A program made the position numbers and the translations under genes. From Escherichia coli (GTDB lineage Bacteria > Pseudomonadota > Gammaproteobacteria > Enterobacterales > Enterobacteriaceae), in NCBI RefSeq assembly GCF_041886205.1, contig NZ_CP169029.1: 64,000 bases of DNA. One strand, given 5' to 3'. Of the stretch, positions 6,352 through 51,367 are shown in pieces. The notes below the pieces were generated by a model. The model saw only the letters and a list, made by a program, of their open reading frames with translations, searched no databases and was not told the DNA's origin. The stretch's first letter is position 1; each line of letters begins with the position of its first letter.

Positions 6352-6360
6352 TCTCCCTAT

Positions 6361-6394
6361 GCCCGATAACATTTTGCTTATCGGGCATTTTTAT
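6361..6394 (+). terminator. Rho-independent terminator after lgoT
   Basis: gcccgataa / cattttgc / ttatcgggc hairpin followed by atttttat. Confidence 0.7.
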
Positions 6395-6399
6395 GGCGA

Positions 6400-8064
6400 T
6401 TAAAACGTTTCCCAGTTCTCACCGCTATCTGCCACGGCCATTTTACGCGGCGCAGCTGGCATCACGGTTTTTACCACAGCCGATGTTTCACGCTGCTGTT
6501 GCTGCTGTTGCTGAATCCGGAACACTGCCACAGCTTCGGTCAGGCGACTGGCCTGCTCTTCCAGCGCGGCGGCGGCAGCGGCAGACTCTTCCACCAACGC
6601 GGCGTTCTGTTGAGTTACCCGGTCCATCTCAGCAACCGCTAAGCCAACCTGATCGATACCGCGGCTCTGCTCATCAGAAGCAGAAGCAATTTCGCCCATA
6701 ATGTCCGTCACGCGGGTCACGGCGCTGACAATCTCCGCCATTGTTTCCCCGGCGCTTTCGACCAGCGTAGAGCCAACATCCACTTTCCCCACCGAGTCTT
6801 CAATCAGGCTTTTAATTTCACGAGCCGCCTGGGCGCTGCGCTGGGCCAGATTACGCACTTCACCCGCGACCACCGCAAAACCGCGCCCTTGCTCACCCGC
6901 ACGCGCAGCCTCAACCGCCGCGTTCAAAGCCAGAATATTGGTCTGGAAGGCAATGCCGTCAATTACGCTGATAATATCGGCGATTTTCTGCGAACTGGTG
7001 GAAATATCGCGCATAGTCTGCACCACGTTATCTACCACTTTGCCGCCGCGTTGCGCCGTTTCAGAAGCACTTAACGCCAGGTGGCTGGCCTGGCGCGCAT
7101 TCTCGGCGTTCTGTTTCACCGTTGCGGTCAGTTGCTCCATGCTGGCTGCCGTCTCTTCCAGCGAAGCGGCCTGTTGCTCGGTGCGCGAAGAGAGATCGTT
7201 ATTGCCGGTGGCGATTTCGCTGGCACCGCTATAGATGGCATTGGCCCCGTTGCGCACATCACCGACGGTACGCATCAGCTCTCCCTGCATATGGCGCAAA
7301 CTCTCTGCCAGTTGCCCCATCTCATTAGAGCCATCCACCTCAATCGGTTTCACCAGATCGCCGCCTGCAATATGACGAATGCTGTCAATCAGGCGATTCA
7401 TTGGCGCTACCAGCGAGGCTTTAATACCGAACCAGACGGCGAAGATGACCGCCAGTACGACGATCATCACGCCCACCAGAATCCACATCGCCTGGCTGTA
7501 GGAGGCATTGTTATCGCTGACGGCGATATCATAGAGCCGATCGTTTTGCTCCATGTAAGCCACATACTGCTTCTCGAAACCGTCCTGATATCCCTGGGTC
7601 GGCTGATCAAAGAACTCGTTGATTTTGCCTGCACCTAACAGTTGGATCAGCTCCGCCAGCGCATTGTGATAAATATCGTAATTACGTTTGATCTCTGCCG
7701 CTGCGGCGGTGCTCTGACGCGGGTCACGCGGCAACGCTTCGTAATCCGCCCAGTTTTTTTCCGCCTGTTTCAGCGAAATACTGGCACTCTGCATCAGCTC
7801 AGCAACGGTTGAACCGCTACCAATATTATTCTGATCCATCATGTAGCGGATACCCGCGCGGTTGAGGGTGTTACGCGTCTGCAACAACGCGACCCAGCTG
7901 CCATTCAGCGTGGATTGCTGCTGGCGAATGGTTTGTAAAACAGTGAAATTTTCTTTGTCATTCTTTAAGGCATTAAAGAACAGACCGCCTGATGTCAGTT
8001 GTAAAAGGCCAAAAACGGCCAAAACCAGCAGTAAGCTGGTCACGATCTTGATACGTTTTAACAT
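6400..8064 (-). CDS. tsr: Methyl-accepting chemotaxis protein I (serine chemoreceptor)
   Basis: 554 aa; two TM segments, HAMP, highly conserved MCP signalling core ([37 protein letters not shown]), C-terminal NWETF pentapeptide; contains a 7-Gln tract near the C-terminus. Confidence 0.92.
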
Positions 8065-8095
8065 GGTTTCTCTTTCCTGTGGACCGACATCAGGA

Positions 8096-8122
8096 TTTTC
8101 GGCCTGAAATGAGAAAACTTTA
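8096..8122 (-). promoter_or_regulatory. Sigma-28 (FliA) class-3 flagellar promoter of tsr
   Basis: On the minus strand TAAAGTTT-N11-GCCGAAAA, one mismatch from consensus TAAAGTTT-N11-GCCGATAA, about 30 nt upstream of the tsr ATG. Confidence 0.7.
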
Positions 8123-8292
8123 TAGGTAGCGACTTGAAACTGGTTAATTTTACCTCACTTTTTTAATTTTTGTTCAAAAATACAATAACCACTTATTGAT
8201 ACATTTTCTTTTCTTATTTTTTTCACACGAATTGTATCTATTTTGAACGAAATATTTTATAGAGTGTGGAATTTTAAGAAAGGACATCTGAA

Positions 8293-8835
8293 ATGTTAAA
8301 CCGTGACTTCGATCATCTCTCAACGCTATTACATCTCTTTTTTGAACGTGAGGATATTTGCCAAAAGCTTAATATTATTGACCAAAACAATATCACCGGT
8401 TGGGAAGTGTGGTTCCAGGTAGAATTTGCTAATATGCTCTGCTCAACAGACCATGAATGGTGGCGTGAACAGGCACTTTCCTGTGATATGCGCAAAAAAC
8501 CTGAACGCCCGACACTACGCACAGATTTCTTACTACGTAAAAAAGGCTGGGCGCAAGATAGCTATATCGCGCTTGAAATAAAACAAAACAGTGACGCGAC
8601 CAGTTGTGTTAAAAATATGATCGCAGACTTAGAAAAAAGCGCCAAAATCAAACGTTCAGAACTCGAGTTACGCAGTTTCTGGACCCTGGGTATCACCCCT
8701 GTGATAGACAGAGAAAGGCTGGATTCTCTCATCGATTGCTATTTAGATGAGAAATTTTATCTTACTAAATCTCGTAAAAAACACGTTTTACTTAAAGAAA
8801 TAAATAATACACCATATTCCTATATTGTTATTTAA
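8293..8835 (+). CDS. Hypothetical 180-aa protein with PD-(D/E)XK-like motif, AT-rich
   Basis: 543-nt ORF in strongly AT-rich DNA where long ORFs are unlikely by chance; AAGGA upstream of ATG; motif D(TDFLL)...E-I-K (YIALEIKQ) spaced like a PD-(D/E)XK nuclease core; I do not recall a gene between tsr and btsT in K-12. Confidence 0.5.
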   Translation: MLNRDFDHLSTLLHLFFEREDICQKLNIIDQNNITGWEVWFQVEFANMLCSTDHEWWREQALSCDMRKKPERPTLRTDFLLRKKGWAQDSYIALEIKQNSDATSCVKNMIADLEKSAKIKRSELELRSFWTLGITPVIDRERLDSLIDCYLDEKFYLTKSRKKHVLLKEINNTPYSYIVI

Positions 8836-8943
8836 TATTTATAGCATGAATATAATTTTTATATGAGTTACACAACCGAGGGCTAAAAATCGCTTCGGTT
8901 GTGATCATCATCACATAAATAACCTTCATAAACCTTGCTCAAA

Positions 8944-8971
8944 ACCGCTCAACCGCAAAACTGACCGCTTA
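8944..8971 (+). promoter_or_regulatory. Putative BtsR (YehT) LytTR-type response-regulator binding site upstream of btsT
   Basis: Direct repeats ACCGCTCA ... ACCGCTTA separated by about 12 bp, matching the remembered ACC(G/T)CT(C/T)A repeat motif of the yjiY/btsT promoter. Confidence 0.5.
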
Positions 8972-9127
8972 CGTCCCTAAAATAACCACTCAGTTATTTA
9001 CCTTACTTTACGCGCGCGTAACTCTGGCAACATCACTGCAGGATAGCGGTCAATTTACCTCCTCAAACGCAACGCAAACCTAGAACGGCTTCGGCCAACG
9101 ATTAATCAATACATGCCAGGTTTTACT

Positions 9128-11278
9128 ATGGATACTAAAAAGATATTCAAGCACATACCCTGGGTGATTCTCGGAATCATCGGTGCATTCTGCCTCGCGG
9201 TAGTTGCATTACGTCGGGGGGAGCACGTCAGCGCCCTGTGGATCGTGGTCGCCTCTGTGTCGGTGTATCTGGTGGCGTATCGCTACTACAGTCTGTACAT
9301 CGCCCAGAAGGTGATGAAACTCGACCCCACGCGCGCGACGCCTGCGGTTATTAACAACGACGGTCTGAACTACGTTCCGACCAACCGTTACGTGTTGTTT
9401 GGTCACCACTTCGCCGCTATCGCCGGTGCTGGTCCGCTGGTCGGTCCGGTTCTCGCCGCACAGATGGGCTACCTGCCTGGCACGCTGTGGCTGCTGGCGG
9501 GGGTAGTACTGGCCGGTGCGGTTCAGGACTTTATGGTGCTGTTTATCTCCTCTCGCCGTAACGGCGCATCTCTCGGTGAGATGATCAAAGAAGAGATGGG
9601 GCCAGTTCCGGGGACTATCGCGCTGTTTGGCTGTTTCTTAATCATGATCATCATCCTCGCCGTTCTGGCGCTGATTGTGGTTAAAGCCCTGGCCGAAAGT
9701 CCGTGGGGTGTCTTCACCGTTTGCTCAACCGTACCGATTGCGCTGTTTATGGGTATCTACATGCGCTTTATCCGTCCGGGGCGTGTGGGTGAAGTCTCTG
9801 TCATTGGTATCGTGCTGCTGGTTGCCTCTATCTACTTCGGTGGCGTGATTGCTCACGATCCGTACTGGGGTCCGGCACTGACCTTTAAAGACACCACCAT
9901 TACCTTCGCGCTGATTGGCTATGCGTTTGTTTCCGCACTGCTGCCGGTGTGGCTGATCCTCGCACCGCGCGACTATCTGGCAACCTTCCTGAAAATCGGC
10001 GTTATCGTCGGCCTGGCGCTGGGTATCGTGGTGCTGAACCCGGAACTGAAAATGCCTGCGATGACCCAGTACATTGACGGTACTGGCCCGCTATGGAAAG
10101 GCGCTCTGTTCCCGTTCCTGTTCATCACCATCGCCTGTGGTGCGGTATCTGGCTTCCACGCGCTGATCTCTTCCGGTACGACGCCGAAACTGCTGGCTAA
10201 TGAAACCGACGCGCGTTTCATTGGCTACGGCGCAATGCTGATGGAGTCCTTCGTGGCGATTATGGCGCTGGTTGCTGCATCCATCATCGAACCGGGTCTT
10301 TACTTCGCGATGAATACCCCGCCTGCTGGCCTTGGCATCACCATGCCTAACCTGCATGAAATGGGTGGCGAGAACGCGCCGATCATCATGGCGCAGCTGA
10401 AAGACGTTACCGCACACGCGGCAGCGACAGTCAGCTCCTGGGGCTTCGTGATTTCGCCAGAGCAGATCCTGCAAACCGCGAAAGACATTGGTGAGCCTTC
10501 TGTCCTGAACCGTGCAGGTGGTGCGCCGACGCTGGCGGTAGGTATCGCTCACGTGTTCCACAAAGTGCTGCCGATGGCTGACATGGGCTTCTGGTATCAC
10601 TTCGGTATTCTGTTCGAAGCCCTGTTCATCCTGACCGCGCTGGATGCGGGTACTCGTTCTGGCCGCTTTATGCTGCAAGACCTGCTGGGTAACTTCATCC
10701 CGTTCCTGAAAAAAACCGACTCTCTGGTTGCCGGTATCATCGGTACTGCGGGCTGTGTGGGTCTGTGGGGCTACCTGCTGTATCAGGGCGTGGTCGATCC
10801 GCTGGGCGGCGTTAAGAGCCTGTGGCCGCTGTTCGGTATTTCCAACCAGATGCTGGCAGCCGTAGCGCTGGTACTGGGCACCGTTGTGCTGATTAAGATG
10901 AAGCGCACCCAATACATCTGGGTAACTGTTGTTCCGGCTGTATGGCTGCTTATCTGCACCACCTGGGCGCTGGGTCTGAAACTGTTCAGCACCAACCCGC
11001 AGATGGAAGGCTTCTTCTACATGGCAAGCCAGTACAAAGAGAAGATTGCTAACGGTACTGACCTGACGGCGCAGCAGATTGCCAACATGAACCACATCGT
11101 TGTGAACAACTACACCAACGCGGGCCTGAGTATTCTGTTCCTGATTGTGGTGTACAGCATCATCTTCTACGGTTTCAAAACCTGGCTTGCGGTGCGTAAC
11201 AGCGACAAACGTACTGACAAAGAAACACCGTACGTTCCAATCCCGGAAGGCGGCGTGAAGATCTCTTCGCACCACTAA
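9128..11278 (+). CDS. btsT: Pyruvate/H+ symporter, CstA-family transporter
   Basis: 716 aa from ATG at 9128 (MDTKKIFKHIPWVILG); many TM helices; CstA family architecture; synteny with yjiX-yjiA. Confidence 0.88.
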   Translation: MDTKKIFKHIPWVILGIIGAFCLAVVALRRGEHVSALWIVVASVSVYLVAYRYYSLYIAQKVMKLDPTRATPAVINNDGLNYVPTNRYVLFGHHFAAIAGAGPLVGPVLAAQMGYLPGTLWLLAGVVLAGAVQDFMVLFISSRRNGASLGEMIKEEMGPVPGTIALFGCFLIMIIILAVLALIVVKALAESPWGVFTVCSTVPIALFMGIYMRFIRPGRVGEVSVIGIVLLVASIYFGGVIAHDPYWGPALTFKDTTITFALIGYAFVSALLPVWLILAPRDYLATFLKIGVIVGLALGIVVLNPELKMPAMTQYIDGTGPLWKGALFPFLFITIACGAVSGFHALISSGTTPKLLANETDARFIGYGAMLMESFVAIMALVAASIIEPGLYFAMNTPPAGLGITMPNLHEMGGENAPIIMAQLKDVTAHAAATVSSWGFVISPEQILQTAKDIGEPSVLNRAGGAPTLAVGIAHVFHKVLPMADMGFWYHFGILFEALFILTALDAGTRSGRFMLQDLLGNFIPFLKKTDSLVAGIIGTAGCVGLWGYLLYQGVVDPLGGVKSLWPLFGISNQMLAAVALVLGTVVLIKMKRTQYIWVTVVPAVWLLICTTWALGLKLFSTNPQMEGFFYMASQYKEKIANGTDLTAQQIANMNHIVVNNYTNAGLSILFLIVVYSIIFYGFKTWLAVRNSDKRTDKETPYVPIPEGGVKISSHH

Positions 11279-11287
11279 CCGTGTTTA

Positions 11288-11314
11288 GCCCCGCTTCGGC
11301 GGGGCTTTGTTCTT
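11288..11314 (+). terminator. Hairpin plus T-run after btsT (terminator or attenuator before yjiX)
   Basis: gccccgc / ttcg / gcggggc followed by tttgttctt. Confidence 0.6.
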
Positions 11315-11327
11315 ATCAGAGTGAACT

Positions 11328-11531
11328 ATGTTTGGTAACTTAGGACAGGCAAAAAAATATCTCGGCCAGGCGGCGAAGATGTTGATTGGCATTCCAGACT
11401 ACGACAACTACGTCGAGCATATGAAGACCAACCATCCCGACAAACCGTACATGAGCTATGAAGAATTCTTCCGCGAACGCCAGAACGCGCGCTACGGCGG
11501 CGATGGTAAAGGCGGTATGCGCTGTTGTTAA
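11328..11531 (+). CDS. yjiX: Small DUF466-family protein
   Basis: 67-aa ORF between btsT and yjiA; conserved position. Confidence 0.75.
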
Positions 11532-11541
11532 TGGAGAGAGC

Positions 11542-12498
11542 ATGAACCCGATTGCAGTTACCCTACTCACCGGTTTTTTAGGCGCGGGAAAAACCACCCT
11601 GCTGCGCCATATTCTTAATGAACAACACGGCTACAAGATTGCCGTGATTGAAAACGAATTCGGCGAAATCTCCGTTGATGATCAATTGATTGGTGATCGC
11701 GCAACGCAGATCAAAACGCTGACCAACGGCTGCATCTGCTGTTCGCGCTCCAACGAGCTGGAGGACGCGCTACTCGACCTGCTGGATAATCTCGACAAGG
11801 GCAATATTCAGTTCGATCGTCTGGTCATTGAATGCACCGGCATGGCCGATCCCGGCCCGATTATTCAGACCTTTTTCTCCCATGAGATTTTATGCCAGCG
11901 CTACCTGCTGGACGGCGTGATTGCGCTGGTGGATGCGGTACATGCCGATGAGCAGATGAACCAGTTCACCATCGCCCAGTCACAGGTTGGCTACGCCGAC
12001 CGTATTCTGCTGACTAAAACCGACGTCGCAGGCGAAGCAGAAAAACTGCGTGAACGCCTGGCGCGCATCAACGCCCGTGCACCGGTCTACACCGTTACCC
12101 ACGGCGACATCGACCTGGGCCTGCTGTTCAACACCAACGGTTTTATGCTGGAAGAAAACGTCGTCAGCACCAAACCGCGTTTCCACTTTATCGCGGATAA
12201 ACAAAACGATATTTCGTCGATTGTGGTGGAACTGGATTACCCGGTAGATATCAGCGAAGTTTCCCGGGTGATGGAAAACCTGCTGCTGGAATCGGCGGAT
12301 AAACTGCTGCGTTACAAAGGGATGCTGTGGATTGACGGCGAACCTAACCGCCTGCTGTTCCAGGGCGTCCAGCGCCTCTACAGCGCCGACTGGGACAGGC
12401 CATGGGGCGATGAAAAACCGCATAGCACGATGGTGTTTATCGGGATTCAGTTGCCGGAGGATGAGATTCGGGCAGCGTTTGCGGGGTTGAGGAAGTAA
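11542..12498 (+). CDS. yjiA: CobW/G3E-family metal-binding GTPase
   Basis: 318 aa from ATG 11542; P-loop GFLGAGKTTL, CxCC metal motif (NGCICCS); stop of yjiX 10 bp upstream. Confidence 0.85.
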   Translation: MNPIAVTLLTGFLGAGKTTLLRHILNEQHGYKIAVIENEFGEISVDDQLIGDRATQIKTLTNGCICCSRSNELEDALLDLLDNLDKGNIQFDRLVIECTGMADPGPIIQTFFSHEILCQRYLLDGVIALVDAVHADEQMNQFTIAQSQVGYADRILLTKTDVAGEAEKLRERLARINARAPVYTVTHGDIDLGLLFNTNGFMLEENVVSTKPRFHFIADKQNDISSIVVELDYPVDISEVSRVMENLLLESADKLLRYKGMLWIDGEPNRLLFQGVQRLYSADWDRPWGDEKPHSTMVFIGIQLPEDEIRAAFAGLRK

Positions 12499-12832
12499 TT
12501 ACCTTAACCTACTCATACGAAGCGGACGAGGATAAAATCCTATCATTTTCCGTTCGCTTCATTATTTTATTTTCTTTCCAATGCCCATTCAAATTAAAAA
12601 TATAACTCTGCCATAACTTCCTGAACACAGATGTAATTACATTGCCACCTCTCATACTTTTAAAAACGATCCATATGACAAGTCGTCCTATTGGGGCGTG
12701 ATAGATGTATTAATTTCCAAATATGCAAACATTCTGATACAGTCCCAAAAAGAAAATAATTACCAACCCAGATAATCAGCAAATAAATTAATGACAGTTG
12801 AATTATAATCAACACGAATACAAGAGATTAAC

Positions 12833-14683
12833 ATGGCAACAATAATCCCAACAATCAGTAGCTGCAACGATAAAATTACTGCCGGAGAGAAAAGGCTGGC
12901 AAGAATTCTGGAAAGAGGACTAGGCGAAGAGTGCTGCTGTTGGTATGACATTCCCACGGGTGATAAGCATCTTCACCCAGATTTTATGATACTTTCGCCA
13001 GAAAAAGGCATTATTTTTCTCGAGGTAAAAGATTGGTTTATTACAAAAATAAAAAAAGCCAACAAGTCTAATGTGTGGTATGAGACACAAAATGGCATTC
13101 AATCTTTAAAGAATCCGATAGAACAAGTTAGGCGATATGCTTTCGAAGCTGTAAACCAGTTAAAAAAAGACCCCCTATTGCGCCAACAGGATGATCGTTA
13201 CAATGGCAATCTTCTTTTCCCCTATGGATATGGCGTCTACTTTAGTAATATTACACGAGAAGCATTAAATAATAAATTTACTCAAGAAGAGCTGCTCGGG
13301 ATCTTCCCATCAGATCTCATCATCTGCAAAGACGAACTAAATGAATTCATGTCAAAAGAGGATGTTTCATCTAAAATACATTCGTTAATTAAATATGACT
13401 TCAAATGTCATGCTACACAAGAACAGTTGAACAGGATTAGATGGCACTTATACCCCGATGTCAGAATAGAAAGGGAAAAGAGAAGTAAAAACCGTGATGA
13501 ATTGAGTGTCGATGCACCAACCATCATTTCTATCCTGGATACTCAACAGGAACAACTTGCCAGGAGTATGAGAGATGGCCACCGAATCATTCATGGTGTT
13601 GCAGGTTCAGGGAAGACATTGATCCTCTATCATCGCTGTCAGGAATTAGCGAAAAAAAATGACAGCGAAAAGCCAATACTTGTCATTTGCTACAATATTA
13701 CTTTAGCCAAAAAACTTCGGTCGATGTTCATCAATCATCCCTTTGCAGAGAAAATAAAGGTTAAAAATTTTCATGCATGGTGTTTCCAACAAATTAAAGA
13801 AAACAAGATCACCATTCCAGAAGGGGATAATATTTTTGAAAATATGGAGCAAGCGTTGACTGATGGTTTCAACACAGGAAAAATAAAACCAGAACAATAC
13901 AGCGCTGTATTAATTGATGAAGGACATGATTTTAAGCCCGAATGGTTAAAAATCCTTGCAAAAATGACTGACTCTCAGGACGAGAATTTGCTATTCCTTT
14001 ATGATGATGCTCAGTCAATTTACCAAAAAAAGAAAGCATTAGACTTTACACTGTCCAGCGTAGATATTAAAGCGACAGGGCGCACAACTATTCTTAATAT
14101 AAATTATAGAAACACACAGCAAATCCTACACTTTGCCAGTTGCATTGCATTTAATTATCTTAATAGCCATATCGATAGTTCTTTAACCTATCATAAACCT
14201 GCTGCGGGAGGAATGAATGGCGATTATCCCAACCTTGAACATTTCGACACACAGGACGAAGAAATAGCAAGAGCAGTCAAATGGATTACAGAGCAAAATG
14301 AACAAGGGATTCCGTGGTCTGAAATTGCTATACTAAGTCCATCAACTCATACCCTTTCTAACTCTCTAAGTTCTGTACTTGAATCGAAAAACATCCCCTT
14401 TAATCTTATTGTAAGCTCTGCAGATAAAAAATCCTGGACGCCAGAACAAGAGCGTGTTTCTGTGATGCCATTACCCAGCAGCAAAGGGCTTGAGTTTCAC
14501 TCAGTTGTCATTATTGACGCAGCGAGAACACGGGATAATAGCGATGATTTGAGTGAGGATATAAAGAGACTCTATGTAGGTTTTACCCGAGCACGTTGCA
14601 ATCTCTTGGTAACCTTGCACGGTGAAGGTGCGTTAAATGAGCATCTACTAAAAACCTATGAGCAAAGCCCACAATATATGTAA
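12833..14683 (+). CDS. NERD-domain nuclease fused to SF1 (UvrD-like) helicase; Nhi-like candidate anti-phage protein
   Basis: 616 aa; N-terminal NERD-like region with PD...(E)VK core (HPDFMIL ... IIFLEVKDW); Walker A GVAGSGKT, Walker B VLIDEGHDF, SF1 motif V/VI-like LPSSKGLEFHSVVII and LYVGFTRARCNLLV; AT-rich; occupies the slot that holds mrr-hsdRMS in K-12. Confidence 0.75.
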   Translation: MATIIPTISSCNDKITAGEKRLARILERGLGEECCCWYDIPTGDKHLHPDFMILSPEKGIIFLEVKDWFITKIKKANKSNVWYETQNGIQSLKNPIEQVRRYAFEAVNQLKKDPLLRQQDDRYNGNLLFPYGYGVYFSNITREALNNKFTQEELLGIFPSDLIICKDELNEFMSKEDVSSKIHSLIKYDFKCHATQEQLNRIRWHLYPDVRIEREKRSKNRDELSVDAPTIISILDTQQEQLARSMRDGHRIIHGVAGSGKTLILYHRCQELAKKNDSEKPILVICYNITLAKKLRSMFINHPFAEKIKVKNFHAWCFQQIKENKITIPEGDNIFENMEQALTDGFNTGKIKPEQYSAVLIDEGHDFKPEWLKILAKMTDSQDENLLFLYDDAQSIYQKKKALDFTLSSVDIKATGRTTILNINYRNTQQILHFASCIAFNYLNSHIDSSLTYHKPAAGGMNGDYPNLEHFDTQDEEIARAVKWITEQNEQGIPWSEIAILSPSTHTLSNSLSSVLESKNIPFNLIVSSADKKSWTPEQERVSVMPLPSSKGLEFHSVVIIDAARTRDNSDDLSEDIKRLYVGFTRARCNLLVTLHGEGALNEHLLKTYEQSPQYM

Positions 14684-14827
14684 AAATGATAAATGATCTC
14701 CATAACGCCCGGTAACGCGGTACCGGGCGAAATGAATGCATATCTAAGATATTAGTCACGCCTGATAGCCGCTACCAAAAACACCATCATCTCCCTCGCA
14801 TCTTTGCGGTGATAAAATCGTACCATT

Positions 14828-15121
14828 TTGCTGTTAAATTCCAGCGCGTTAGCCGCTGGAATTAACAAGATCAGACTTCCGGCAACGAAGAGCCAGTTAT
14901 TACAAAAATTACTGGCAAAAGAGATAAAAAGCATTGTTGACAACACATCGAAATATCCTGACTGGAGTAAACACGATGATATTAAAGCGAAACTGAAAGT
15001 TGAACTTATTCTGCTTCTACACAAGCATAAGTTCCCGTCAGTAGCGAATGATGATGTTTATATGGGTGTGCTGGCACAGGCAGAGAGTTTTAAAGAACAT
15101 CATATGAGTCCTATAAATTAA
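14828..15121 (+). pseudogene. Orphan ORF fragment without ATG start, possible relic of a displaced restriction cassette
   Basis: 97-codon frame beginning at TTG with no convincing RBS; reads like the C-terminal tail of a larger protein; located between the NERD-helicase gene and symE. Confidence 0.3.
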
Positions 15122-15299
15122 TCATGAAGGCTGGATACACTTTGTTATCCGGCCATTGTGAATTAACGTTAATTTTTCTTCCAAATCTTTCCAGTAACGC
15201 TTTTATTATTTTCTATTTTTAGCTGGACTTTCCCTGTATTTACTGATGATATGTCCAGGTATTTAGCGCGGTGCGGATGTGCGCCAACACACCCGCACC

Positions 15300-15376
15300 A
15301 CTCATCACAATCACTATTTTCAAGGAATAGCAGTTATGACTGACACGCATTTTATTGCACAACCGTTCGAAGCAGA
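15300..15376 (-). ncRNA. symR: Expected position of SymR antisense sRNA (type I antitoxin) overlapping the symE RBS and start
   Basis: Placement inferred from the known symE/symR arrangement; boundaries not determinable from sequence alone. Confidence 0.35.
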
Positions 15377-15677
15377 AGTCTCCCCGGCAAATAACCGTCA
15401 ATTAACCGTGAGTTATGCGAGCCGCTACCCGGATTACAGCCGTATTCCCGCCATCACCCTGAAAGGTCAGTGGCTGGAAGCCGCCGGTTTTGCCACCGGC
15501 ACGGCGGTAGATGTCAAAGTAATGGAAGGCTGTATTGTCCTCACCGCCCAACAACCCGCCGCCGAAGAGAGCGAACTGATGCAGTCGCTGCGCCAGGTGT
15601 GCAAACTGTCGGCGCGTAAACAAAAGCAGGTGCAGGATTTTATTGGGGTGATTGCCGGTAAACAGAAAGTCGCCTGA
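15336..15677 (+). CDS. symE: SOS-induced toxin SymE (AbrB/MazE-like fold endoribonuclease)
   Basis: 113 aa from ATG 15336 with AAGGAA SD; sequence [25 protein letters not shown] ... matches remembered SymE (YjiW). Confidence 0.8.
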
Positions 15678-15684
15678 TAAATTG

Positions 15685-15716
15685 ACCCGGTAGCGCCAGT
15701 GCTACCGGGTATTATT
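15685..15716. terminator. Bidirectional hairpin between convergent symE and GmrSD-like gene
   Basis: acccggtagc / gccagt / gctaccgggt followed by attatt; lies between stop codons 15677 and 15724. Confidence 0.6.
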
Positions 15717-15723
15717 CGCCACG

Positions 15724-17817
15724 TTATACCAACGCGCTCTCCATCTGTTTTTCAAATGCCTGACGAATTAATCCCATAATGTAAGGAAGTTGTGCGAGGT
15801 CGCTGAAACCAATTTCCACATCACCATTACCCCAGCGCCCAATATTTGTCACATCTTTGGCAATACCTTTCGGATCGACCAGTTCATGAAACTGCATATT
15901 AAGCGACAATCGCAGTCGGCTTTTTTGCGGCACAACATCAACAAAATTCGTTTCAGCTTTAAACGCAATATACAGCTTTAAAACTTCCTGCGTGATCCCT
16001 GCGTCCAGGCGCATAACTTCATCGCGAAGATGATCGAATAACACCCGGCTATGCGAACCATCAGCAAGAAAAGGATAATCACTCAGGCTGTAACTGGTTT
16101 TGTTTTCTGGCTGCCCCCGATAAACAGCTAAAACCTCTTCAGAAAGAGAAGGCGCTTGCCAGACCTGAACCGCGAGATCGGCCAGACGATCGGCTCGGGC
16201 GTGAATGGCGGCTTCATCCCATTTTTCGCACTGTCCAAGACCGATATTCAAATAAAGCGGGCTATGTTTAAAGCCATCTTCAATATCGCGTTTTTCCGCG
16301 AAAGGTCTGTCACTGTAGCGGGAGTTATAGCGCGTTAAAGTGAGATTCCCCAACGTATGTAACAGTTCTTTATGCACACGCTGCCAGTCGCTTCCCAGCT
16401 CTTCACGCCATTTAGCCGACAGATTTTCGTTCTGCGGCATAATGTGCTCAATCGTAAACTCTTCCACGCGCTCTCTGCGTTTATCGTTTTCCAGTCGTCG
16501 TAACCAGTAGCTGCGGCTGCGGAAGTTATAGAGATCGCGCACTTTTAATTCCCGTTTAAATTCATCATCGTTGGGGAAACGACGATATGAAGGCAGGTTC
16601 ATAAAATGTACCTGAATACTTTCCAGATATTTTTCTTTATTAATGACCTTATAAAAAGTGGCAAACGTCTTGTTAAGAGAATTCGTCGGAATCGCACATA
16701 CTGCACGGCGGAAAACATAAGATTCAATTAAACGAATTATGCTCAGGAAATCTTCGTGAGACAAATCGTCATTTTTATAGTCATGATAAAGCGCCAGTAA
16801 GAAAGGATACGCCACATCAACCTTTAACTCGCGCAAATCCTGAAAAGCCGTAGCAAGCGATTTGTCACTTTCTTTTCCCAATGCCATTGCACAGTAATAC
16901 TCCGCGTAGATATGAATATCTTCAACCAGCCGATCTACGCCTTTTTCAGCAACACTCTGGCTGCGGGCATGGAGTTTAAATGCCTCATAGACTTCATCTG
17001 TCCGAGGGATCTCCCCCGTTTTTACCGTCAGATAATGACGCATAAAACTGTCAAAATATTCGCTGTAACCTTGCTGACCAAAGGCGACTTCCATTGGACG
17101 CCAGTGATCTTCATACAACCGGGTTTGATGCTCTGGTTCGAGACCCATCAGAATAAAATTGCGCACCAGATCGGCCTGACTTAACGCCTTACCGGTGGAG
17201 TTCATACTTTCAAAAATCAGTTGCGGATTATCCTGACCACGATTAAGCGCCACATCGACAATTAATAACTTTGCTAACCCTCGACATAAGGGAATCAAGT
17301 CATCCCCGAGTTTGGCAATTTGCTCATCAAAGAAAGTAAAGTTTTCCATTATTCGATGGGAATAGTTTTCTGGCATTGGTCTTTGTTTTATTAACGCCAG
17401 CAAACTGTCTTTATCAGTCTCGGTCAGCAGTAATTTAAAACCTTTCTCGCCGGACTCATAAGGATTGAGCAAATAATAATTACGCAATTTCATTGCCGAA
17501 AAGCCATCAAAAACTTCGTCTTCGCCAAGATGGCGCGATAAAGCCTCAATCAGCAACATTGCGGTCGTCAGCCGCTGCTGACCATCAATGACCAGCAACG
17601 GAGAAATACCAGAAACCTGATACAACCCCTGCTCAATATAAACAACCGAACCGATAAAATGCGCTGATATATCGTCACGCTTTCCGGCACGAATGATGTC
17701 GTCCCAAAGTTGCCGACATTGTTGCCCGGTCCATGAATAGGTGCGTTGATAAATGGGAATAACAAACTGCTGCGAACGTTTTAAAAAATCGAGTAGGCGG
17801 GCTTCTGTAGCTTTCAT
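15724..17817 (-). CDS. Type IV modification-dependent restriction endonuclease, GmrSD family (DUF262 + DUF1524)
   Basis: 697 aa; N-terminal DUF262/ParB-like NTPase motifs (IPIYQRTYSW, IDGQQRLTT); C-terminal DUF1524 His-Me finger motifs (EHIMPQ, HTLGNLTLT); sits where mcrBC lies in K-12. Confidence 0.75.
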   Translation of the reverse strand: MKATEARLLDFLKRSQQFVIPIYQRTYSWTGQQCRQLWDDIIRAGKRDDISAHFIGSVVYIEQGLYQVSGISPLLVIDGQQRLTTAMLLIEALSRHLGEDEVFDGFSAMKLRNYYLLNPYESGEKGFKLLLTETDKDSLLALIKQRPMPENYSHRIMENFTFFDEQIAKLGDDLIPLCRGLAKLLIVDVALNRGQDNPQLIFESMNSTGKALSQADLVRNFILMGLEPEHQTRLYEDHWRPMEVAFGQQGYSEYFDSFMRHYLTVKTGEIPRTDEVYEAFKLHARSQSVAEKGVDRLVEDIHIYAEYYCAMALGKESDKSLATAFQDLRELKVDVAYPFLLALYHDYKNDDLSHEDFLSIIRLIESYVFRRAVCAIPTNSLNKTFATFYKVINKEKYLESIQVHFMNLPSYRRFPNDDEFKRELKVRDLYNFRSRSYWLRRLENDKRRERVEEFTIEHIMPQNENLSAKWREELGSDWQRVHKELLHTLGNLTLTRYNSRYSDRPFAEKRDIEDGFKHSPLYLNIGLGQCEKWDEAAIHARADRLADLAVQVWQAPSLSEEVLAVYRGQPENKTSYSLSDYPFLADGSHSRVLFDHLRDEVMRLDAGITQEVLKLYIAFKAETNFVDVVPQKSRLRLSLNMQFHELVDPKGIAKDVTNIGRWGNGDVEIGFSDLAQLPYIMGLIRQAFEKQMESALV

Positions 17818-18254
17818 TCTGACGTCTTTCCGTGAAGCGATGATTTCGCAATAATAACCGCTTCCTTGTGGAGGTTATAGAGAAATCCTGTTTATCCGCG
17901 ATGAATTGCCCCCTCACTCCACATCCTCCCTACGTAACCCAATATCCCTCAACCGCTCATCACTCATCTGCTGTAACACTCGTCGGGTCTGCATTTGCCG
18001 CCGCCAACGCCTCACCGCCTGCCAGAGTTGCACAAGTCTGATAAACGGCGTTTTGGCTTTGTTTTCGTGAAATTCCATCTGCTGCCTCCTCATCTTTCAG
18101 AGGCTTCATCATCCGCCTTCTGGCAGTTCACAATACAGATGCAAATATTAGTTTTATTTAACATACAGACAGGTTAAAACAGCATCTGCATCCGGTTTTT
18201 TAGCCTCATCTGTACCGGTTTTTCTTTCTGTATGGGCCAAATAAGGAATACAGC

Positions 18255-19667
18255 ATGACGCGTTATCAACATCTGGCGACTCTACTTGCCGAGCGGATTG
18301 AGCAAGGGCTGTATCGTCACGGGGAGAAATTGCCGTCGGTGCGCAGCTTAAGTCAGGAGCACGGCGTCAGCATCAGCACCGTGCAACAGGCGTATCAGAC
18401 GCTGGAAACGATGAGGCTCATCACTCCGCAGCCGCGTTCGGGTTATTTTGTCGCACAACGTAAAGCCCAGCCGCCTGTACCGCCGATGACGCGTCCGGTG
18501 CAGCGCCCGGTGGAAATTACCCAGTGGGATCAGGTGCTGGATATGCTGGAGGCGCATAGCGACAGTTCCATTGTTCCGTTAAGCAAAAGCACGCCGGATG
18601 TCGAAACGCCCAGCCTGAAACCGCTGTGGCGGGAGCTAAGCCGGGTGGTGCAGCATAATCTACAAACCGTTCTCGGTTATGACTTGTTAGCCGGTCAGCG
18701 AGTGTTGCGAGAGCAGATTGCCCGCCTGATGCTCGACAGCGGCTCGGTGGTCACCGCCGATGACATCATCATCACCAGCGGCTGCCATAACTCGATGTCG
18801 CTGGCGTTAATGGCGGTGTGTAAACCGGGCGATATTGTCGCGGTCGAATCCCCCTGTTATTACGGTTCGATGCAGATGCTGCGCGGCATGGGCGTGAAAG
18901 TGATTGAAATCCCAACCGATCCAGAAACTGGCATCAGCGTCGAAGCGCTGGAACTGGCGCTGGAACAGTGGCCGATTAAAGGCATCATTCTGGTGCCAAA
19001 CTGTAATAATCCGCTGGGATTTATTATGCCGGACGCACGCAAACGGGCCGTTCTCTCTCTCGCTCAGCGTCATGATATTGTGATTTTTGAAGATGATGTC
19101 TACGGCGAACTGGCAACGGAGTATCCGCGCCCGCGGACCATCCATTCATGGGATATCGACGGGCGAGTGTTGTTGTGCAGCTCGTTCAGTAAAAGTATTG
19201 CTCCAGGCCTGCGCGTGGGTTGGGTCGCACCGGGGCGTTATCACGATAAACTGCTGCATATGAAATACGCCATCAGCAGCTTTAATGTGCCGTCCACGCA
19301 AATGGCGGCGGCAACGTTTGTGCTGGAAGGTCACTATCATCGCCATATCCGGCGGATGCGGCAGACTTATCAGCGCAATCTGGCGCTTTATACCTGCTGG
19401 ATACGGGAATATTTTCCCTGCGAAATCTGTATTACGCGCCCGAAAGGCGGATTTTTACTGTGGATCGAATTGCCTGAACAGGTCGATATGGTTTGCGTTG
19501 CGCGGCAGCTGTGCCGCATGAAAATCCAGGTGGCGGCAGGCTCGATTTTCTCGGCTTCCGGCAAATATCGTAATTGTCTGCGCATCAACTGCGCTTTGCC
19601 GCTCAGCGAAACCTATCGCGAAGCACTGAAGCAAATTGGCGAAGCCGTGTATCGGGCAATGGAATGA
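18255..19667 (+). CDS. yjiR: MocR-type GntR-family regulator with PLP aminotransferase-like domain
   Basis: 470 aa; N-terminal GntR wHTH (SVRSLSQEHGVSISTVQQAYQTLE) fused to class I/II aminotransferase-fold domain. Confidence 0.8.
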   Translation: MTRYQHLATLLAERIEQGLYRHGEKLPSVRSLSQEHGVSISTVQQAYQTLETMRLITPQPRSGYFVAQRKAQPPVPPMTRPVQRPVEITQWDQVLDMLEAHSDSSIVPLSKSTPDVETPSLKPLWRELSRVVQHNLQTVLGYDLLAGQRVLREQIARLMLDSGSVVTADDIIITSGCHNSMSLALMAVCKPGDIVAVESPCYYGSMQMLRGMGVKVIEIPTDPETGISVEALELALEQWPIKGIILVPNCNNPLGFIMPDARKRAVLSLAQRHDIVIFEDDVYGELATEYPRPRTIHSWDIDGRVLLCSSFSKSIAPGLRVGWVAPGRYHDKLLHMKYAISSFNVPSTQMAAATFVLEGHYHRHIRRMRQTYQRNLALYTCWIREYFPCEICITRPKGGFLLWIELPEQVDMVCVARQLCRMKIQVAAGSIFSASGKYRNCLRINCALPLSETYREALKQIGEAVYRAME

Positions 19668-46578: not shown

Positions 46579-46740
46579 GATTTTTCCTCTTTCACATAGT
46601 GGGTTCCACAGCAAAGAGACGCGGAACCCTGGAGTTGTTTAGGTATCCGGATGAACAACCAGACCGCAGCCGTGGCGTTGCATCGGATGAGATGGCGTAT
46701 AAGTTCTACCTTTTGGTAAGACATGTCAACCCGAATTCTG

Positions 46741-46757
46741 AAATTGGTTAACCACAT
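46741..46757. promoter_or_regulatory. UxuR/ExuR operator-like palindrome in uxuA upstream region
   Basis: aaattggttaaccacat with TGGTTAACCA palindromic core. Confidence 0.5.
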
Positions 46758-46972
46758 CACAAGAAATCAACTCTATTGCTGGTTGATGCAAATGACAACA
46801 AAGGAGAAGCGGCGGTTAGTAATCGGGGGATGTGACATTCATCGCAATAATGGTTGACCAATTTACATAACGTGTCGCCCAAAATAACAATGGATTAACC
46901 TACTCCCCCATTGCATAAGTTGTGACCGACACAACAAAACTGATGTTGTTGCAAAGATTGCTATTTAGTTTT

Positions 46973-46987
46973 GGTATAAAAGGTATA
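46973..46987 (+). promoter_or_regulatory. Tandem GGTATA repeats, NanR-operator-like, about 50 bp upstream of nanM
   Basis: GGTATAaaaGGTATA; NanR is known to bind GGTATA repeats. Confidence 0.4.
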
Positions 46988-47036
46988 CAGGCACATGGTG
47001 CGACATTTGAATTCCAGCGATCAGGAGTAATTCACA

Positions 47037-48143
47037 ATGAATAAAACAATAACGGCGCTTGCTATCATGATGGCTTCATTTGCCGCAAACGCGTCTGTAT
47101 TACCGGAAACTCCTGTGCCATTTAAAAGTGGTACCGGAGCAATTGATAACGACACTGTCTACATTGGTTTAGGTAGCACAGGTACGGCATGGTACAAGCT
47201 GGATACACAGGCCAAAGATAAAAAATGGACAGCGTTAGCTGCATTCCCTGGCGGACCAAGAGATCAAGCAACCTCGGCATTTATTGATGGCAATCTGTAT
47301 GTGTTTGGCGGCATTGGCAAAAACAGCGAGGGCTTGACTCAGGTATTTAATGACGTACACAAATACAACCCCAAAACCAATAGTTGGGTTAAATTGATGT
47401 CGCACGCACCGATGGGCATGGCGGGTCATGTAACTTTTGTACACAACGGCAAGGCTTATGTTACTGGCGGTGTTAACCAGAATATCTTCAATGGCTATTT
47501 TGAAGATCTCAACGAGGCTGGAAAAGATTCAACCGCTGTAGATAAAATCAACGCTCACTATTTTGACAAAAAAGCAGAAGATTATTTCTTCAATAAGTTT
47601 CTGTTGTCTTTTGATCCCTCAACACAGCAATGGAGTTACGCTGGCGAATCCCCCTGGTACGGAACGGCTGGTGCGGCGGTTGTGAATAAAGGTGATAAAG
47701 CCTGGCTTATTAATGGCGAAGCCAAACCAGGATTGCGAACGGATGCCGTATTTGAACTTGATTTCACCGGTAATAATTTAAAATGGAATAAGCTTGCTCC
47801 CGTCTCATCACCAGATGGCGTCGCTGGCGGTTTTGCGGGGATAAGCAATGATTCTCTTATATTTGCCGGAGGGGCCGGATTCAAAGGTTCACGAGAAAAT
47901 TACCAGAACGGTAAGAACTATGCGCATGAAGGCCTGAAAAAATCATATAGCGCTGATGTTCATCTTTGGCATAACGGGAAATGGGATAAATCGGGCGAAT
48001 TGTCGCAAGGTCGGGCCTACGGAGTATCATTGCCCTGGAATAATAGTTTATTAATTATTGGCGGTGAAACTGCAGGCGGCAAAGCGGTGACGGATTCAGT
48101 TTTGATCTCTGTGAAGGATAATAAAGTCACAGTACAAAACTAA
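47037..48143 (+). CDS. nanM: N-acetylneuraminate mutarotase (Kelch-repeat beta-propeller, periplasmic)
   Basis: 368 aa; signal peptide MNKTITALAIMMASFAANA; repeated GG-containing Kelch blades (YVFGGIG, YVTGGVN, IFAGGAGF, LLIIGGE). Confidence 0.85.
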   Translation: MNKTITALAIMMASFAANASVLPETPVPFKSGTGAIDNDTVYIGLGSTGTAWYKLDTQAKDKKWTALAAFPGGPRDQATSAFIDGNLYVFGGIGKNSEGLTQVFNDVHKYNPKTNSWVKLMSHAPMGMAGHVTFVHNGKAYVTGGVNQNIFNGYFEDLNEAGKDSTAVDKINAHYFDKKAEDYFFNKFLLSFDPSTQQWSYAGESPWYGTAGAAVVNKGDKAWLINGEAKPGLRTDAVFELDFTGNNLKWNKLAPVSSPDGVAGGFAGISNDSLIFAGGAGFKGSRENYQNGKNYAHEGLKKSYSADVHLWHNGKWDKSGELSQGRAYGVSLPWNNSLLIIGGETAGGKAVTDSVLISVKDNKVTVQN

Positions 48144-48207: not shown

Positions 48208-49188
48208 ATGGACGCAATAATATCGCCCGATTATTACTATGTTCTTACCGTTGCTGGTCAGTCTAATGCCATGGCGTATGGCGAAGGACTGCCATTACCG
48301 GACAGGGAAGATGCGCCTCATCCCAGAATTAAACAATTAGCAAGATTTGCGCATACGCATCCCGGAGGCCCGTCATGTCACTTTAACGACATTATTCCAC
48401 TGACTCACTGCCCACACGATGTTCAGGATATGCAGGGTTATCACCATCCTCTGGCAACGAATCATCAAACACAGTACGGCACCGTTGGCCAGGCACTGCA
48501 TATTGCACGGAAATTACTGCCCTTCATTCCTGATAATGCAGGGGTTCTCATCGTTCCATGTTGTCGTGGCGGCTCGGCTTTTATCGCAGGCAGCGAAGGG
48601 ACATATTCAGAACGGCACGGAGCCAGCCATGATGCTTGTCGTTGGGGAACGGATACTCCGCTATACCAGGATTTAGTCAGCAGAACGCGAGCCGCACTGG
48701 CAAAAAATCCGCAGAACAAATTCCTCGGCGTATGCTGGATGCAAGGCGAATTTGACTTAATGACCTGTGACTACTCGTCACACCCTCAACACTTTAATCA
48801 TATGGTTGAAGCCTTTCGTAGGGATCTAAAACAATACCATTCTCAGCTTAATAAAATTACTGACGCGCCGTGGTTTTGCGGCGATACCACCTGGTACTGG
48901 AAAGAAAATTTCCCTCATGCGTATGAAGCTATTTATGGCAATTATCAAAATAATGTTTTAGCTAATATTATTTTCGTCGACTTCCAGCAACAAGGTGAAA
49001 GAGGACTGACGAACGCGCCTGATGAAGACCCGGACGATTTAATCATGGGATATTACGGTTCAGCGTACCGGTCACCGGAGAACTGGACGACGGCACTGCG
49101 AAGCAGTCATTTCAGCGCGGCAGCCCGTCGGGGGATTATTTCTGACAGGTTTGTAGAAGCAATTTTGCAGTTTTGGCGCGAAAGGTGA
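48208..49188 (+). CDS. nanS: 9-O-acetyl-N-acetylneuraminate esterase (SGNH-like)
   Basis: 326 aa directly downstream of nanM; LTVAGQSNAM Ser-containing motif near N-terminus. Confidence 0.8.
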   Translation: MDAIISPDYYYVLTVAGQSNAMAYGEGLPLPDREDAPHPRIKQLARFAHTHPGGPSCHFNDIIPLTHCPHDVQDMQGYHHPLATNHQTQYGTVGQALHIARKLLPFIPDNAGVLIVPCCRGGSAFIAGSEGTYSERHGASHDACRWGTDTPLYQDLVSRTRAALAKNPQNKFLGVCWMQGEFDLMTCDYSSHPQHFNHMVEAFRRDLKQYHSQLNKITDAPWFCGDTTWYWKENFPHAYEAIYGNYQNNVLANIIFVDFQQQGERGLTNAPDEDPDDLIMGYYGSAYRSPENWTTALRSSHFSAAARRGIISDRFVEAILQFWRER

Positions 49189-49195
49189 GCGTTCA

Positions 49196-49846
49196 TTAAT
49201 TTGATTTATTCGCATCCATTAGCGCTTTTAACTGCTCCGGCGTAAACGGTGGTTTGCGTCGGTGCAGCATCGCATGGCAATTAGGGCACACAGGAAGCAA
49301 ATCATTAACTGGATCCAGCTGGTAATCCTCTTTAATGGCTGAAAGCGGCACCAGGTGATGCACATGGATAAAGCCTTCAGCGATATCACCATAGATCTTC
49401 ACCAGATCAACGCCGCATACGTTGCATTGGCATCCATGATGTTCGACCGCTTTATCTCGGGCCTTTTTATCGCGTTCATAGCGGTTTACTGTCACCTTTA
49501 TCGCCGCACCTTCAACGTAGGTCCCCTGCGACGGCAGCTCATCCGGGAACAGAACGTCGGCTATGGGAGCCGCAGCGGCTTTATCCTGATGAATATGAAA
49601 TCCCTGCTCTATGAGTAGCTTGACACATTTAGATTTTATTCCGCCGGTGAAATCCGCAGGGGTAAATTGCGTCCCCGTCATCAATGTCGCTGCGATGCCA
49701 GCAATCGCCTTCGAGGGGTAACGTCGGCCATGATATTCAATTTCATACAACCGTGCAGGCTGGAACTGATGAGTTTCTCCCGCATCCCATAAATGAATAG
49801 CTTCGATGATATACCGCCGCGGAAGATGATCGGGGAGTTTATTCAT
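49196..49846 (-). CDS. HNH endonuclease with N-terminal putative DNA-recognition domain (candidate modification-dependent restriction enzyme)
   Basis: 216 aa; SD AAGGA; C-terminal HNH motif (CQCNVCGVD ... HVHHLVPL ... CPNCHAMLH); stop codon 8 bp from nanS stop (convergent). Confidence 0.7.
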   Translation of the reverse strand: MNKLPDHLPRRYIIEAIHLWDAGETHQFQPARLYEIEYHGRRYPSKAIAGIAATLMTGTQFTPADFTGGIKSKCVKLLIEQGFHIHQDKAAAAPIADVLFPDELPSQGTYVEGAAIKVTVNRYERDKKARDKAVEHHGCQCNVCGVDLVKIYGDIAEGFIHVHHLVPLSAIKEDYQLDPVNDLLPVCPNCHAMLHRRKPPFTPEQLKALMDANKSN

Positions 49847-49992
49847 AGAGAATGTCCTTATACGTTCTCAGAACAAGCAGCAAAAAAACAAATGAGATCA
49901 AAGTAATATATCTTCACTTGCAGGCTTGAACAGCAGAAAATTTGCGAGCATGATCGCAATTATTTCACTGCCAGGGAGGTAATGACTCCAAC

Positions 49993-50496
49993 TTATTGAT
50001 AGTGTTTTATGTTCAGATAATGCCCGATGACTTTGTCATGCAGCTCCACCGATTTTGAGAACGACAGCGACTTCCGTCCCAGCCGTGCCAGGTGCTGTCT
50101 CAGATTCAGGTTATGCCGCTCAATTCGCTGCGTATATCGCTTGCTGATTACGTGCAGCTTTCCCTTCAGGCGGGATTCATACAGCGGCCAGCCATCCGTC
50201 ATCCATATCACCACGTCAAAGGGTGACAGCAGGCTCATAAGACGCCCCAGCGTCGCCATAGTGCGTTCACCGAATACGTGCGCAACAACCGTCTTCCGGA
50301 GCCTGTCATACGCGTAAAACAGCCAGCGCTGGCGCGATTTAGCCCCGACATAGCCCCACTGTTCGTCCATTTCCGCGCAGACGATGACGTCACTGCCCGG
50401 CTGTATGCGCGAGGTTACCGACTGCGGCCTGAGTTTTTTAAATGGCGGAAAATCGTGTTGAGGCCAACGCCCATAATGCGGGCGGTTGCCCGGCAT
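49993..50496 (-). CDS. insB: IS1 transposase InsB
   Basis: 167-aa ORF matching IS1 InsB ([19 protein letters not shown]...). Confidence 0.9.
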
Positions 50497-51266: not shown

Positions 51267-51282
51267 GATTTGCATACGGTGT

Positions 51283-51367
51283 GGTGCCGAAGGCCGGACT
51301 CGAACCGGCACGTATTTCTACGGTTGATTTTGAATCAACTGCGTCTACCGATTTCGCCACTTCGGCA
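51283..51367 (-). tRNA. leuX: tRNA-Leu (anticodon CAA)
   Basis: 85-nt minus-strand sequence GCCGAAGTGGCGAAATCGGTAGACGCAGTTGATTCAAAATCAACCGTAGAAATACGTGCCGGTTCGAGTCCGGCCTTCGGCACCA; anticodon loop TTCAAAA; next to ahr as in K-12. Confidence 0.92.

Follow-up and report, generated by a model that had tools for sequence, protein, structure and literature searches.

A probable NanR-type operator directly upstream of nanM-nanS in a rare Escherichia coli allele lacking nanC

Direct repeats of the hexamer GGTATA are the defining trait of the operators recognized by NanR (PMC3658417, PMC8012715), and such operators form part of the nanATEK-yhcH, nanCMS and yjhBC promoters (PMC8012715, PMC3658417). NanR dimers bind these repeats cooperatively, with a KD of ~25 nM for a (GGTATA)2 oligonucleotide, while a single repeat is bound poorly and six additional spacer nucleotides attenuate binding; Neu5Ac weakens the interaction, and the location of the operator in the promoter region blocks transcription (PMC8012715). 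Both nanCMS and yjhBC are NanR-regulated and Neu5Ac-induced (PMC3658417), and genomic SELEX placed NanR in the spacer between nanC and fimB (PMC4797297). Around this spacer the K-12 genes run in the order nanS, nanM and nanC, all pointing to the left, then fimB, fimE and fimAICDFGH, followed by the left-pointing gntP and the right-pointing uxuA, uxuB and uxuR.

The locus studied here belongs to a 64-kb stretch of E. coli DNA (hereafter the window, meaning the whole stretch that was analysed), in which the gene order is reduced to uxuR, uxuB and uxuA pointing to the left and nanM and nanS pointing to the right, with a single intergenic region between the two groups (Table 1). A first-pass annotation had drawn attention to two direct GGTATA hexamers some 50 bp upstream of nanM and had read them as a NanR-type site inherited from the nanC promoter of K-12-type genomes. 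Both hexamers are exact matches on the + strand, they are separated by the trinucleotide AAA, and 49 nt lie between the second of them and the nanM ATG at 47037, the sequence around the tandem reading ...tagttttGGTATAaaaGGTATAcaggcacatggtgcgacatttgaattccagcgatcaggagtaattcacaATG. As single GGTATA hexamers are common in the window (27 copies vs ~16 expected), a lone copy is uninformative; in contrast, GGTATA-N3-GGTATA occurs just once on the two strands of the 64 kb, has exact matches in 0/100 dinucleotide shuffles, and has an expectation of 0.15 in the window even with one mismatch permitted. Together with a degenerate third copy the element reads GGTATA-AAA-GGTATA-CA-GGCACA (46973-46995), i.e. 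at least two direct repeats 2-3 nt apart, immediately 5' of sialic-acid genes. The transcription unit that follows is nanM-nanS rather than nanCMS, since nanC survives only as a 22-nt 3' relic. Based on these features and on the homologies described below, we consider it likely that the two repeats and the degenerate third constitute a NanR operator in a compact nan-family promoter that drives the nanM-nanS operon directly.

Table 1. Coordinates of the features recognized between uxuA and leuX in the window
Feature	Position	Strand	Remarks
gntP promoter-region relic	46831-46902	+	K-12 uxuA-gntP spacer, ending ~20 bp short of the gntP ATG; points to nanM
UxuR-type palindrome	46849-46864		within the gntP relic
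Promoter-like TTTACA-18-AACAAT	46862-46891	+	9/12 consensus match
Left deletion junction, gntP-promoter relic / nan module	46903-46912	.	K-12 collinearity stops near 46900
nan-type promoter/operator module (83 bp)	46913-46995	+	homologous to modules 5' of K-12 nanC, nanX (yjhB) and nanA
CRP-like site TGTGA-CCGACA-CAACA	46921-46936	+	vs TGTGA-N6-TCACA: left half perfect, right half weak (3/5)
GGTATA repeat 1, predicted NanR operator	46973-46978	+	aligns with repeat 1 of the K-12 nanC, nanX and nanA operators
GGTATA repeat 2, predicted NanR operator	46982-46987	+	invariant in 8/8 modules
Degenerate third repeat GGCACA (4/6)	46990-46995	+	2 nt past repeat 2
nanC relic (final 22 nt), stop codon lost	46996-47017	+	blastn homology to K-12 resumes at 46996, 21 nt inside nanC
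Counterpart of the 19-nt nanC-nanM spacer	47018-47036	+	12/19 identical to K-12
Shine-Dalgarno AGGAG of nanM	47023-47027	+	within the nanC-nanM spacer counterpart
nanM (N-acetylneuraminate mutarotase/epimerase), intact	47037-48143	+	362/368 aa identical to K-12; annotated nanM in ET201 and 6EVA
nanS (sialate O-acetylesterase), intact	48208-49188	+	314/326 aa identical to K-12; annotated nanS in ET201 and 6EVA
HNH-endonuclease ORF	49196-49846	-	next after nanS
IS1 transposase fragment	49993-50496	-	
tRNA-Leu(CAA) leuX	51282-51366	-	

Aligned with the K-12 nanC promoter, as the first-pass annotation had suggested, the segment that ends in these repeats gives a significant match: its local score against the nanC-fimB spacer is 49, a value reached by 0/500 shuffles (mean 20, maximum 31). 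Scores against the K-12 nanX and nanA regions are 35 and 32, respectively, and again 0/500 shuffles reach either. The K-12 nanC-fimB spacer holds a single GGTATA-N3-GGTATA, gatcTGGTATAacaGGTATAaaGGTGCA, ~430 bp 5' of the nanC ATG, and the operators of K-12 nanA and nanX (yjhB) are identical to this string save that their third repeat is perfect. In the window, as in the K-12 nanC operator, 3 nt separate the first two repeats and 2 nt precede the degenerate third, which is GGCACA in the window and GGTGCA in K-12 nanC, the same position being occupied by GGTATA in nanA and nanX. The shared repeat architecture and the nanC 3' relic, together with the alignment score, bear out the idea that the site derives from the promoter upstream of nanC. 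We then compared eight modules, namely those of the window, Escherichia whittamii, the SCPM-O-B-8794 lineage, Escherichia sp. E1V33, nanC of E69 (which has the K-12-type arrangement with nanC present), and K-12 nanC, nanX and nanA, and found a common layout of TTGTGA ... ACAAA ... TTTGTT ... GATTG ... TGGTATAA-AGGTATA-AGG. Identity to the window's module is 97-98% in E. whittamii, 88% in SCPM-O-B-8794 and 63% in E1V33, as against ~65% for K-12 nanC, 63% for nanX and 51% for nanA, with the modules beyond the window's near-identical relatives spanning 51-68%; the nanC-type module is itself stable, being 96% identical between K-12 and the divergent E69 lineage. Amid this otherwise low identity 17/20 positions of the operator core TGGTATAANAGGTATANAGG are invariant over the eight modules, and the site is therefore a homologue of the known operators and not a chance match. 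Such invariance amounts to a phylogenetic footprint over the elements that NanR recognizes, and the sequence evidence thus supports the earlier interpretation of the repeats as a NanR operator.

Conservation of the module extends beyond the repeats. The GTGA of the left half of the CRP-like site is invariant in 8/8 aligned modules, and the site lies 46.5-49.5 bp 5' of the TATA of the first repeat in every module; in the window this distance falls 3 bp short of that in nanC and nanX, and the helical phasing of the two elements could be altered as a result. Activation of nanC by CRP was reportedly described by Condemine et al. in 2005, and the conserved TGTGA ~47 bp 5' of repeat 1 probably confers a cAMP-CRP dependence on the window's promoter. 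A Dam site, GATC, abuts repeat 1 in the nanA, nanC, nanX and E69 nanC modules (alignment columns 67-70) and is absent from the nanM-type modules, which have GTTT or TTTA instead (window 46969-46972), and any link between methylation and the behaviour of the NanR site would thus be lost here. A scan for the sigma-70 consensus found no promoter over the window's operator; as it also missed the K-12 nanA and nanC regions, we set it aside as evidence in either direction. We infer that the module is itself the promoter, with a candidate -10 element, TATAAA or TATACA, within the repeats. This placement rests on the homology to nanA, from the summary given by Horne et al. and from the work of Kalivoda in 2003, which is said to have put the promoter at the operator.

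In light of this arrangement, we posit that in the absence of sialic acid two NanR dimers would bind cooperatively to the two perfect repeats, which stand at their native spacing and would overlap or abut the -10/start region, and that transcription would be blocked. Neu5Ac binding to NanR would weaken its hold on the DNA, thereby derepressing nanMS. Transcription is predicted to start near 46988-46998, giving a leader of ~40-50 nt that would carry the nanM Shine-Dalgarno sequence; CAGGAG and TCACA in the counterpart of the nanC-nanM spacer are kept in all lineages. The same stretch contains an 11-codon upstream ORF (46995-47030, ATG GTG CGA CAT TTG AAT TCC AGC GAT CAG GAG TAA), which extends across what is left of nanC and the Shine-Dalgarno sequence of nanM. 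We rejected it as a real feature and regard it as probably fortuitous, as the corresponding ATG in E. whittamii and SCPM-O-B-8794 gives a different length or the nanM frame.

The repressor gene, nanR, is absent from the 64-kb window, where tblastn finds only the paralogue UxuR. The nearest complete genome with this allele is that of strain ET201, with an identity of 99.4% across the locus. Its NanR matches that of K-12 at 262/263 aa; the N-terminal DNA-binding half is identical, and the sole change affects residue 207, which is not part of that domain. ET201 further possesses nanATEKQ with a nanA operator identical to that of K-12, and nanR is present in 5410/5426 E. coli genomes.

The first-pass annotation had spoken of a loss of nanC, which holds in that nanC is gone bar its 22-nt relic, but the loss is far larger. 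About 12.5 kb of K-12 (positions 5786-18297 of the K-12 locus, L002) are missing between uxuA and nanM (window 46579-47036), a block that comprises gntP, fimH-fimB, ~1 kb, i.e. most, of the 1.45-kb fimB-nanC spacer, and nanC. With the K-12 proteins NanC, FimB/E/A/D/H, GntP and NanX as queries, tblastn returned no match anywhere in the 64-kb window, and the type 1 fimbrial cluster is absent from its usual place in this strain. The NagC and IHF sites acting on fimB, which we take to lie in the upstream part of the K-12 fimB-nanC spacer, were lost with it. At the right-hand end of the deletion, an ungapped comparison anchored at the nanM ATG shows the nanC relic to be identical to K-12 at 16/22 positions (binomial P = 6e-6; 1/200000 shuffles) and the leader as a whole at 28/41 (binomial P = 1.5e-8). 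This comparison and the blastn extension replaced a free local alignment of the leader with the nanC 3' end, whose score of 20 was reached by 51/500 shuffles. Given the match of the 3' relic, the deletion in nanC starts just past the operator and ends 22 nt short of the stop codon. On the left, E. whittamii Sa2BVA5 has an additional 107 bp at the junction (L004 2751-2857), flanked by TTAACCTG direct repeats and containing gntP-internal matches of 25 bp at 92% and 14 bp at 100%. The window resembles the product of removing this insert, which is consistent with a stepwise decay. Further downstream, collinearity of the window with ET201 stops at 49977; the ~40-kb K-12 leuX island (KpLE2, including nanXY and fec) is absent from the window, and leuX is followed by ahr, yjgR, lptG, lptF, pepA, holC and valS.

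Comparison of successive segments suggests that the junction did not arise in place. Relative to K-12, identity is 97-99% in uxuA and 162/162 at 46579-46740, falls to 78% at 46741-46830, 89% at 46831-46902 and 68% in the leader (46996-47036), and returns to 100/100 over the first 100 bp of nanM (47037-47136). Relative to E. whittamii, it is 87%, 96%, 98% and 93% over the four segments spanning 46741-47036, and 84-93% in nanM. Fisher tests on the segment identities give P = 2e-9, 1e-11 and 3e-4, and outside the ~300-bp patch of 46741-47036 the window is 97-100% K-12-like on both flanks. Because the patch is E. whittamii-like and the flanks are K-12-like, import of a deletion allele is favoured over deletion of nanC in place. 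The simplest reading of these identities is that a ~300-bp junction allele from a cryptic Escherichia near E. whittamii, which already carried the deletions, recombined into a K-12-like E. coli, the crossovers having probably fallen near 46740 and at the nanM start. The K-12-type origin suggested at the outset thus stands as far as homology goes, but probably not as a recent deletion of a K-12-type allele, the module being ~65% identical to K-12 and 97-98% to E. whittamii. An origin of the window from cryptic clade I, considered since the window's uxuA region is 96-97.6% identical to all E. coli, was ruled out by the 97-100% identity to K-12 outside the patch.

The allele is rare. The 142 bp at 46895-47036 occur in 2/5426 complete E. 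coli genomes, ET201 (frog faeces, China) and 6EVA (human faeces, Singapore), in both with 100% identity and the same gene order. By comparison, nanC is present in 5063/5426 and nanM in 5086/5426 complete E. coli genomes, so that the two genes are normally retained or lost jointly. Among strains with partial nanC or nanM hits, EC529 (L035) and 2017.06.04CC (L036), considered as independent cases of nanM without nanC, were rejected, as IS1-linked deletions there remove nanMS and keep fim; in both, nanM is lost, with or without nanC, fimB and fimE are intact, and the polarity is opposite to that of the window's deletion. A metagenome scan was anchored on the Shine-Dalgarno/ATG string, so that conservation of the operator was not forced. 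It yielded 22 loci, 21 of which are unrelated and one of which (L034, OGXJ01000071.1) is identical to the window, and thus no new operator variants for footprinting were found among the 22.

A NanM scan of genome contigs recovered four Escherichia loci. Among the species representatives, E. whittamii and the SCPM-O-B-8794 lineage show the same operator-nanM fusion, adjoining uxuA. In Escherichia sp. E1V33 the module before nanM is divergent, reading GGTGTA-ata-GGTATA-aa-GGCATA, and occurs together with a different nanC relic and, as the upstream neighbour of the module, a type II Zorya system rather than uxuA. As the module precedes nanM in E. whittamii and SCPM-O-B-8794 and, separately, in E1V33, it has survived two or more distinct rearrangements. 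Most of nanS is missing in both E. whittamii (L004) and E1V33 (L006). In the latter, a partial zorA2, zorB2 and zorE stand directly 5' of the nanM promoter module (L006 76-2790) and a phosphorothioate-DNA-dependent restriction endonuclease lies downstream (L006 4546-5475); the nanM neighbourhood in this lineage is a defence-island hotspot.

We next consider other ways in which the repeats and the genes behind them might be understood. The one that fares best, though we hold it to be unlikely, is that nanMS are transcribed mainly or additionally from the gntP promoter ~140 bp 5', under UxuR/CRP regulation and inducible by fructuronate/glucuronate, with NanR acting as a roadblock and not by promoter occlusion. 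The whole uxuA-gntP spacer is kept to ~20 bp before the gntP start (a gntP relic persists in E. whittamii and the SCPM lineage too), and it contains a promoter-like element facing nanM, with no terminator-like structure found between the relic and nanM; in K-12 this spacer is bound by UxuR (PMC5934670). Yet the promoter call matches just 9/12 of the consensus, with ~1 such match expected by chance in the region, and the full nan module is conserved beyond the repeats, its CRP half-site included, which favours the module being a promoter in its own right. Transcription from the gntP promoter is in any case compatible with a NanR-controlled module promoter, as the two are not mutually exclusive. 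Two UxuR/ExuR-type palindromes, AAATTGGTTAACCACAT and AATGGTTGACCAATTT (46741-46757 and 46849-46864), accompany the gntP relic, which also bears a CRP-like TGTGACATTCATCGCA at 46831-46846.

A composite scheme, which as a whole we rate somewhat lower still, would have an E. whittamii-like deletion allele devoid of gntP, fimBEAICDFGH and nanC imported by homologous recombination into a chromosome that is ordinary E. coli in other respects, with nanMS then read from both a compact NanR/CRP promoter and the UxuR-controlled gntP promoter, such that periplasmic sialate processing would be coupled to hexuronate availability. Sialic-acid sensing would no longer be tied to the phase switching of type 1 fimbriae, and uxuAB, ~400 bp away, might also come under the influence of the NanR site at a distance, as fimB does in K-12.

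It is quite improbable, in our estimation, that the repeats are a non-functional relic of the nanC promoter that survives because the event was recent, leaving nanMS silent or constitutive. The window, ET201, 6EVA and the one metagenome contig are identical and hence uninformative on selection, and the NagC, IHF and GATC elements that accompany the K-12 nanC operator are missing. Against such decay, the operator core is conserved even though nanM differs by 7-16% (nt) and the modules by 12-38% between lineages, the rearrangement in E1V33 is independent, nanM and nanS are intact ORFs with 96-98% aa identity, and two perfect repeats at native spacing suffice for nanomolar NanR binding in vitro. 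Finally, a chance pair of hexamers in AT-rich intergenic DNA has next to no probability and is refuted by homology, as, for all the abundance of lone copies, the tandem, unmatched in the shuffles, precedes a gene of the known NanR regulon and belongs to an 83-bp segment whose homology to three experimentally defined NanR-controlled promoters is significant.

Returning to the preferred reading, a NanR-controlled promoter immediately before nanM, we conclude that the evidence from sequence comparison supports the element being one more example of the established NanR operator/promoter, present as a rare allele at the head of a truncated nanMS operon. The current understanding of NanR is unchanged by this allele, and its only unexpected aspects are its apparent origin as an introgressed deletion allele and the gntP promoter as its upstream neighbour. 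If NanR control has been retained, the periplasmic mutarotase and esterase would stay sialic-acid-inducible even though the NanC porin and type 1 fimbriae are gone, along with the NanR/NagC-fimB link, and the operator-promoter module would be a portable unit kept by selection before nanM across differing rearrangements in several Escherichia lineages. The locus would also offer a natural minimal NanR promoter, with two repeats and a short leader, handy for testing operator rules, and its mosaic junction would exemplify the spread of a large fim-removing deletion allele between Escherichia species by recombination.

Set beside the described nan promoters, the locus shares with nanCMS of K-12 ~83 bp of homology that includes the CRP-like TGTGA, GATTG and TGGTATAA-AGGTATA-AGG, two perfect repeats 3 nt apart followed after 2 nt by a degenerate one, and the downstream genes nanM and nanS. 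It departs from nanCMS in that nanC and its ~430-nt leader region are deleted, placing the operator 49 nt instead of ~1.2 kb from nanM, in that the remainder of the 1.45-kb spacer is gone along with the divergent fimB, and in having no GATC by repeat 1 and the gntP promoter and uxuA upstream. In its operator-to-ATG architecture (~40-50 nt) it resembles nanA more closely than nanC: in nanATEK-yhcH, too, the operator stands tens of bp from the ATG (35 bp for nanA; 41-49 here) with a CRP-like site at a similar distance, although nanA has three perfect repeats, as opposed to two plus a 4/6 match in the window, and a module of only 51% identity, and although nanR adjoins nanA in K-12 and is unlinked to the window's nanM operator. 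The nanXY (yjhBC) promoter of K-12 likewise has a homologous module (63%) with the same TGTGA-to-repeat layout, but with three perfect repeats and ~420 bp from operator to ATG. The operator-nanM fusion without nanC is shared with E. whittamii Sa2BVA5, SCPM-O-B-8794 and E1V33. Unlike the window, E. whittamii still has the 107-bp gntP relic and lacks the greater part of nanS; E1V33 combines a module of 63% identity with a longer leader and Zorya genes upstream; and the genes flanking the window's locus are K-12-like, not cryptic-clade-like.
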